From positions 1 to 41,604 of IMG/VR virus record IMGVR_UViG_3300037604_000053: DNA of 41,604 bases. One strand, written 5' to 3'. The notes beneath the pieces are model-generated. The model was given only the letters and a program-made list of their open reading frames with translations, ran no database searches and had not been told where the DNA came from. Numbering within the stretch: the first letter of the stretch is position 1; the number at the start of each line of letters is the position of its first letter. Shown in pieces: positions 51 through 127 of this stretch. Made by a program: the position numbers and the translations under genes. This DNA comes from a virus. Lineage: Duplodnaviria > Caudoviricetes.

Positions 51-127
51 CGCGGGGTGGAGCAGTCCGGTAGCTCGTCAGGCTCATAACCTGAAGGTCG
101 CAGGTTCAAATCCTGCCCCCGCAACCA
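51..127 (+). tRNA. Host initiator tRNA-fMet (CAT), integration target
   Basis: 77-nt cloverleaf CGCGGGGTGG...CCCCGCAACCA. Anticodon arm TCAGG-CTCATAA-CCTGA, T-loop GGTTCAAATCC, C1:A72 mismatch, A11-U24 pair, encoded CCA. Confidence 0.97.

Follow-up and report, generated by a model that had tools for sequence, protein, structure and literature searches.

A tRNA-Met prophage with attP inside its serine integrase gene: exchange of the integrase C-terminus on integration and a possible removable degradation tag

The prophage, its target tRNA and its att sites

The window, meaning the whole 41,604-nucleotide stretch analysed, is an entire 41.6-kb virus record in which profile and family matches identify lambdoid head, tail, lysis and repressor genes. 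An intact host tRNA-Met(CAT) at 51–127 (+) is the integration target. A C1:A72 mismatch can be read from its sequence; we take this to be a hallmark of initiator tRNAs, so the target is presumably the initiator. The tRNA's 3' end forms a 13-bp left att core (115–127, +) with a predicted crossover dinucleotide at 116–117. The core occurs only once more in the window, as the right att core at 41478–41490 (+), against 0.0008 copies expected by chance. The named relatives point to an alphaproteobacterial host; a search of 401 genomes returned eight matches, one of them close.

The joined attP is short and symmetric about the central dinucleotide, as is typical of phage-type large serine integrases. 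Symmetry about 116–117 extends to 15 of 25 arm positions, the highest value among 20 centres scanned, and a score of 15 is equalled at 13 of 41,552 positions in the window. At the same site, the tRNA arm reaches only 7 of 25. The window attP is less symmetric than those of three other elements (20–21 of 25), and arm symmetry is unable to assign cognate pairs, the left arm of the window scoring 19–20 with the arms of other elements versus 15 with its own. A second att-like copy with a 10-bp core (41535–41544) was considered as the prophage boundary and ruled out: its symmetry is 9 of 25, and a contig representing the empty site joins at 41478, which places this copy outside the prophage.

That contig comes from run X2, possibly the source sample. 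It is 47 nt long and, at the core, fuses the right flank to the end of the tRNA; just 17 nt lie on each side of the core, fewer than the 31-letter bridging rule asks for. Depths in X2 are 37.9 for the empty-site contig, 21.2 for the prophage end and 53.7 for the shared flank. In run X4, one contig departs from the prophage end directly after the core into different DNA, and is read as another insertion context. The attP junction of this phage was not seen among the contigs listed for seven runs (X1, X2, X4, X5, X6, X8 and X9), contigs being a guide to presence and not to absence, and none of the runs listed as containing the stretch is an RNA run. A pattern search found right-hand att sites in none of five provirus records, probably because these records are trimmed at gene ends.

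The integrase gene and its two ends

A large serine integrase, 535 aa long in the lysogen, is encoded at 84–1691 (-). It carries Resolvase, Recombinase, zinc ribbon and coiled-coil regions, with matches above cut-off to Pfam PF00239, PF07508 and PF13408 and four invariant Cys. This is the make-up of phage-type large serine integrases, namely a catalytic domain, a recombinase domain and a zinc ribbon with an inserted coiled coil. The initial annotation described an integrase ORF that runs through the att core and ends antisense within the tRNA, and the description is exact: the ORF crosses the core at 115–127 and stops at 84–86, antisense to the tRNA-Met anticodon loop. The integrated ORF's C-terminus is LVAGAGFEPATFRL, directly before the stop codon. 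Its last residues, GFEPATFRL (84–114, -), are tRNA-derived and predicted to be disordered.

The same annotation held that the frame continues across the joined prophage ends into a tail of similar length, which proved correct. Joining the ends at the core preserves the frame and gives a protein of 538 aa with the new end RNSRHPVIEWIA, encoded by 41477–41438. Because attP sits within the last codons of the integrase gene, integration exchanges the integrase C-terminus: 9 residues derived from the tRNA take the place of 12 phage residues that end in -WIA. The two isoforms it had proposed for the lysogen and the excised circle, of 535 and 538 aa respectively, follow from the sequence. In the prophage the phage-form tail is left stranded at the right end (41438–41477, -), where its first ~25 nt double as an attP arm and its last four codons lie beyond the arm.

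Tails in related integrases

The protein set consists of 178 sequences (P0001 and 177 hits). Their tails are tRNA-derived in 117 cases, follow the same att motif without being tRNA-derived in 48 (one of which stops at the core and was left out), and lack the att motif in 13. DNA loci with near-whole genes include 104 with tRNA tails, 34 with other tails, 14 without a recognised core and 14 running off the contig; ten of these 34 DNA-derived tails were removed, for low symmetry or short length, before the clade tails described below were counted. Both tail types are thus found in natural relatives, and they are interleaved on a tree of 159 rows made without the tails, from which short and motif-less proteins were excluded. 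In the cultured phages RR1-A and Mae-JY30 the att motif also lies within the gene, with phage-type ends -FVA and -IAA and arm symmetries of 12 and 19 of 25. All four elements for which both ends are available (the window, L113/L130, G315 and L103/L146) give a 17-residue tail counted from the att motif, ending in WIA, LAA, FCA and FAA, respectively.

In the clade of the window integrase, to which P0001 belongs (support 0.93), the end of the tail is conserved. Of its 34 non-tRNA tails, 33 have a terminal Ala and 18 a terminal Ala-Ala, and neither Asp nor Glu occurs in the last two places of any of them. The Ala end persists after identity collapse, in 27 of 28 sequences at 70% and 12 of 13 at 60%. 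By comparison, 45 of 282 mechanically called background ORFs (16%) end in Ala and 15 (5%) in Ala-Ala, and none of the 117 tRNA-derived tails ends in Ala. Ala is likewise enriched at position -2 (19 of 34 tails versus 14% in the background, p 1.6e-8), with no Ala at -4. The 16 clade tails that lack Ala-Ala end in VA, SA, TA, RA, WA or, in one case, AG, and the window tail, EWIA, ends in -IA instead of the canonical -AA. Outside this clade a terminal Ala is found in just 13 of 36 tails, although the alternating hydrophobic pattern is still present. Large hydrophobic residues occupy positions -3 and -5 in 76–77% of 70 tails from all clades, and a distant clade contributes six viral contigs with the same alternation, two of them with an Ala end. 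Five further loci (L157, L159, L163, L164 and L263) carry att-associated tails with another motif, RN-x-R-x-RH-x-hydrophobic-x-IA[VI], that end in Val or Ile and not in Ala.

Three reading frames of the att core are in use, those of the VAG, GCG and WLRG lineages, with ~9 changes between them on the tree (16–23 in shuffles; support is weak at several nodes). All three frames retain the Ala end, as well as the end pattern P-x-hydrophobic-x-hydrophobic-x-A. The initial annotation had asked whether VAGARN, tail length and the terminal Ala are conserved in homologues. Length and the terminal Ala are, within the clade. VAGARN and the Pro are constraints of the DNA and not evidence at the protein level, since they are fixed by the symmetric attP arms and altered with the reading frame.

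These constraints lend something to a neutral reading, in which the tails are a by-product of compact att placement, their sequence being dictated by the att arms and by where the next stop codon falls. The tRNA-derived ends of the lysogen forms differ wholly between frames (FRL, RI and LNL) and for that reason look like passive truncations; adjacent integrases in tandem arrays borrow each other's tails; and the ends of the serine integrase DsiB are reported in the available text to be divergent (PMC3146451). However, the terminal Ala of the phage form lies past the 25-bp att arm, in the last four codons, where every one of the four Ala codons and three stop codons is employed, and it has survived the frame changes. 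Random continuation would yield such a length together with an Ala end in 0.17% of cases. We regard a neutral origin of the tails as unlikely. As judged from sequence comparison, the phage-form tail is real, widespread and under selection, its length, its alternating hydrophobic residues and its terminal Ala being conserved in the clade.

The candidate excision factor and gene order

A 55-aa ORF at 1657–1824 (-), predicted to form a single helix, overlaps the start of the integrase gene and is a candidate recombination directionality factor (RDF), the separate protein that phage-type large serine integrases require for excision. In 54 of 103 loci (47 distinct), a motif resembling LVRALARQAA directly precedes the integrase. 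No family name was found for the ORF in PHROGs, NCBIfam or Atlas (best 0.84). A complex was predicted for the corresponding pair of the relative L104, whose integrase has a phage-type tail, and not for the pair of the window itself. The small ORF and integrase score 0.76, versus 0.00 for the best of three controls; the mark used is attained by 116 of 157 solved pairs and by 2 of 215 mismatched pairs. At least 84% of contacts are shared between runs, and the partner has a pLDDT of at least 68. The predicted contacts fall at the base of the coiled coil (350–375, 449–480 and 502–506), and the SPbeta RDF is described in the available text as binding at the base of the integrase coiled coil (10.1101/2025.01.03.631226). 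The contacts match the SPbeta site, so the passing score may reflect likeness to solved complexes. On this basis the 55-aa ORF family is predicted to be an excision factor.

A CI-like repressor (5585–6232, -) stands first in a leftward gene chain whose final members are the candidate RDF and the integrase. From the repressor to the integrase, the minus-strand ORFs overlap or are closely spaced, the largest gap being 106 nt. A DNA polymerase III beta-clamp-like gene (2410–3555, -) also lies within the chain. The gene overlaps suggest that the candidate RDF and the integrase are co-transcribed. Scans of the window for promoters and terminators both remained at chance level, and no terminator turned up close to the stop codon of the phage form.

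The ends of the transcripts themselves could matter. In the lysogen, the last 44 nt of the integrase ORF (84–127) are antisense to an abundant tRNA, and in the circle the transcript would meet a convergent gene (ORF 40804–41415), so that the level of integrase might be set through its mRNA, a reading for which lambda sib supplies a precedent (PMC2951348). Such regulation leaves the conservation of the tail at the protein level unexplained, and the phage-form stop has no terminator found near it; we consider this reading very unlikely.

Predicted structure of the two forms

In the AlphaFold model of the lysogen form, residues 512–535 are disordered (pLDDT <50). The phage-type tail was modelled in the relative P0018, not in the joined protein of the window, and there a strand is predicted at 534–538 (block pLDDT 66) after a low-confidence linker (block pLDDT 39–49). 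Among fold matches, complexes of serine integrases rank first (9dxh: Z 21.0, rmsd 21.8, 458 aligned). The matches cover residues 1 to ~510, with the tail outside the aligned part. Solved serine integrases align to residue ~500–515 of both models, so the lysogen form retains the whole of the known fold and, as far as the models indicate, should be able to excise.

The predicted strand, set against disorder in the lysogen form, suggests that the tail may dock on the zinc-ribbon domain and tune the activity or direction of the enzyme, with the terminal Ala as a packing need. The phage form would then integrate better or resist the RDF, and reduced activity or a lean towards excision would mark the lysogen form. 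The prevalence of large hydrophobic residues at both -3 and -5 across all clades fits this well. According to the available text, the extreme C-terminus of the SPbeta integrase is involved in directionality (10.1101/2025.01.03.631226), and the prophage form of the Mx8 integrase is less active (PMC4701971). However, confidence in the strand is moderate, the linker before it is poorly predicted, and the tail lies past the part alignable to solved integrases. In the L104 prediction the RDF is bound to an integrase with its tail, and the contacts named include no tail residue, those not named being uncertain. A strand alone also fails to explain the Ala at -2, since this position shares a face with -4, where Ala is absent. 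We give a purely structural role roughly one chance in three.

A possible removable degradation tag

The explanation that we favour, with a confidence that is evenly poised, is that the tail lost on integration acts as a ClpXP-type degradation tag. The preference rests on a terminal Ala that survives frame changes, the enrichment of Ala at -2 and the absence of acidic ends, which matches E. coli ClpXP preferences. There, according to the available text, terminal Ala-Ala and LVA are signals; in a tag screen Ala-Ala was found in 91% of the top 100, FKLVA was strong and YALAD was unrecognised (PMC10862746). The -WIA end of the window is not canonical, 16 of 34 clade tails lack Ala-Ala, and weak Ala-Ala tags exist (39% of those in the same screen; PMC10862746); these observations count against a tag. 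The strand modelled for P0018 could moreover hide the tail from a protease. A universal degron appears disfavoured, the Ala end being found in 13 of 36 tails outside the clade while the hydrophobic pattern persists there. With the tail also predicted as a short strand, tag and structural roles may coexist.

If the tail is a tag, the free phage would make an integrase with a conserved, Ala-ending tail of 12 residues, for which integration would substitute nine tRNA-derived residues. The tagged enzyme of the circular phage would have a short life, curbing both integration during infection and renewed integration once the prophage has excised. The untagged enzyme of the lysogen, whose transcript is likely the leftward one that also carries the small excision factor, would have the stability needed for excision. 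The gene order offers a reason for a tag that is present only in the circle, as the RDF and integrase would be made together. More broadly, and with a likelihood that we place a little under even, a large clade of tRNA-Met phages would toggle an integrase degron by its own recombination, with a tagged, short-lived enzyme in the free phage, an untagged, excision-ready one in the prophage, an undescribed family of one-helix excision factors, and a tag rebuilt in all three att frames.

The logic of this scheme would be that of the lambda sib element, which lowers Int made from the circular phage, at the level of protein instead of RNA. Integration of lambda separates sib from int. Co-production of integrase and excision factor is the problem that lambda solves with sib; a degron would show a serine-integrase phage making both from one transcript and favouring excision only in the lysogen. 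As in the xis-int-attP-sib arrangement of lambda, a putative excision factor lies directly before int in a leftward unit, and a negative element would lie distal to int across att; sib, unlike the candidate peptide tail of the serine integrase described here, acts on RNA (PMC2951348).

Relation to known systems

The initial annotation drew its comparison with the mycobacteriophage BPs, and its interpretation overall is partly supported. In BPs, as would hold here if the tail is a tag, integration strips a C-terminal tag from a phage protein, and both repressor and integrase carry C-terminal proteolysis tags (PMC4557955, available text). In BPs, however, attP splits the repressor gene (PMC4557955). 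Here the integrase is split; the repressor is 5.5 kb away, at 5585–6232, and the core occurs only at 115 and 41478.

Closer precedents had been overlooked. Genes for integrases that span their own att sites are known from Mx8 and SSV (PMC4383910, PMC4701971) and, among serine integrases, from Dehalococcoides DsiB (PMC3146451) and the streptococcal ICEs that target rumA (PMC4701971), which makes the present overlap less surprising. In the Myxococcus phage Mx8, attP lies inside int and the C-terminus of IntP is replaced on integration, as found here. IntP is a tyrosine recombinase in which 112 residues give way to 13 and which is less active in its prophage form (PMC4701971, PMC4383910, available text), whereas the present enzyme is a serine recombinase in which 12 give way to 9 and which keeps all known domains, with no large loss. 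DsiB and the integrases of the rumA ICEs are more similar, being large serine integrases with att in the 3' end of their own gene and another C-terminus when excised. A functional difference is suggested in both accounts, and the available text of neither mentions a degron (PMC3146451, PMC4701971). They differ from the present case, a lambdoid prophage in tRNA-Met whose tail is conserved in length and terminal Ala, the DsiB ends being divergent (PMC3146451).

Elements with serine recombinases at the 3' end of tRNA-Met are described in Alphaproteobacteria for the Paracoccus phage vB_PamS_Pami6 (PMC6536676) and the C089B-type islands of Mesorhizobium (PMC10990125). They are likened here by description, and the available text of these accounts mentions neither a gene-att overlap nor two isoforms. 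The accessible parts of two further papers (PMC12884075, PMC11476347) added nothing on gene-att overlap. Integrase genes spanning att sites are thus known already (Mx8, DsiB and the rumA ICEs), and the conserved Ala end was not found in our literature search. No published account of a conserved Ala-ending or degron tail of an integrase, or of a family of one-helix RDFs, was found in that search, most subscription papers and supplements lying outside it.

The swap of 12 residues makes the old suggestion of a functional difference between the forms of att-spanning serine integrases directly testable. When integrases are mined from prophages in this family, it is the lysogen form that gets annotated, and its stability may not equal that of the integrating form. 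The target of the family is a conserved tRNA site, and a candidate RDF comes with it.

The neighbouring element and other features of the prophage

The right flank (41491–41604, -; locus L142) consists of a 54-bp att scar, which contains the second att-like core at 41535–41544, and the 3' end of a neighbour's serine integrase. The neighbour enzyme (L142:610–2307) is 565 aa long and ~40% identical. It reads through the scar, which is 18 codons in length, and ends with the stranded tail of the prophage (41438–41604), so that a tandem neighbour inherits the phage tail. Similar tail borrowing is seen in L146/L103.

A three-gene AT-rich cassette (40283–41415, +) adjoins the right att site. Its 203-aa protein is similar to ImmA/IrrE-like folds (Atlas TM 0.60; Peptidase_M78 on 19% of a near cluster), with KELLH replacing HEXXH. 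The prophage also carries a tRNA-Met(CAT) of its own (6634–6708, +), which resembles the target tRNA at 81% over 59 nt and differs from the att core at its 3' end. The early right region (7369–12132, +) includes three methyltransferase-like genes of ParB-fused, N6/N4 and C5 types. Three near-copies of a 23-nt repeat at 12681–12783, inside an HTH replication-type gene (12338–13660), are possible origin iterons.
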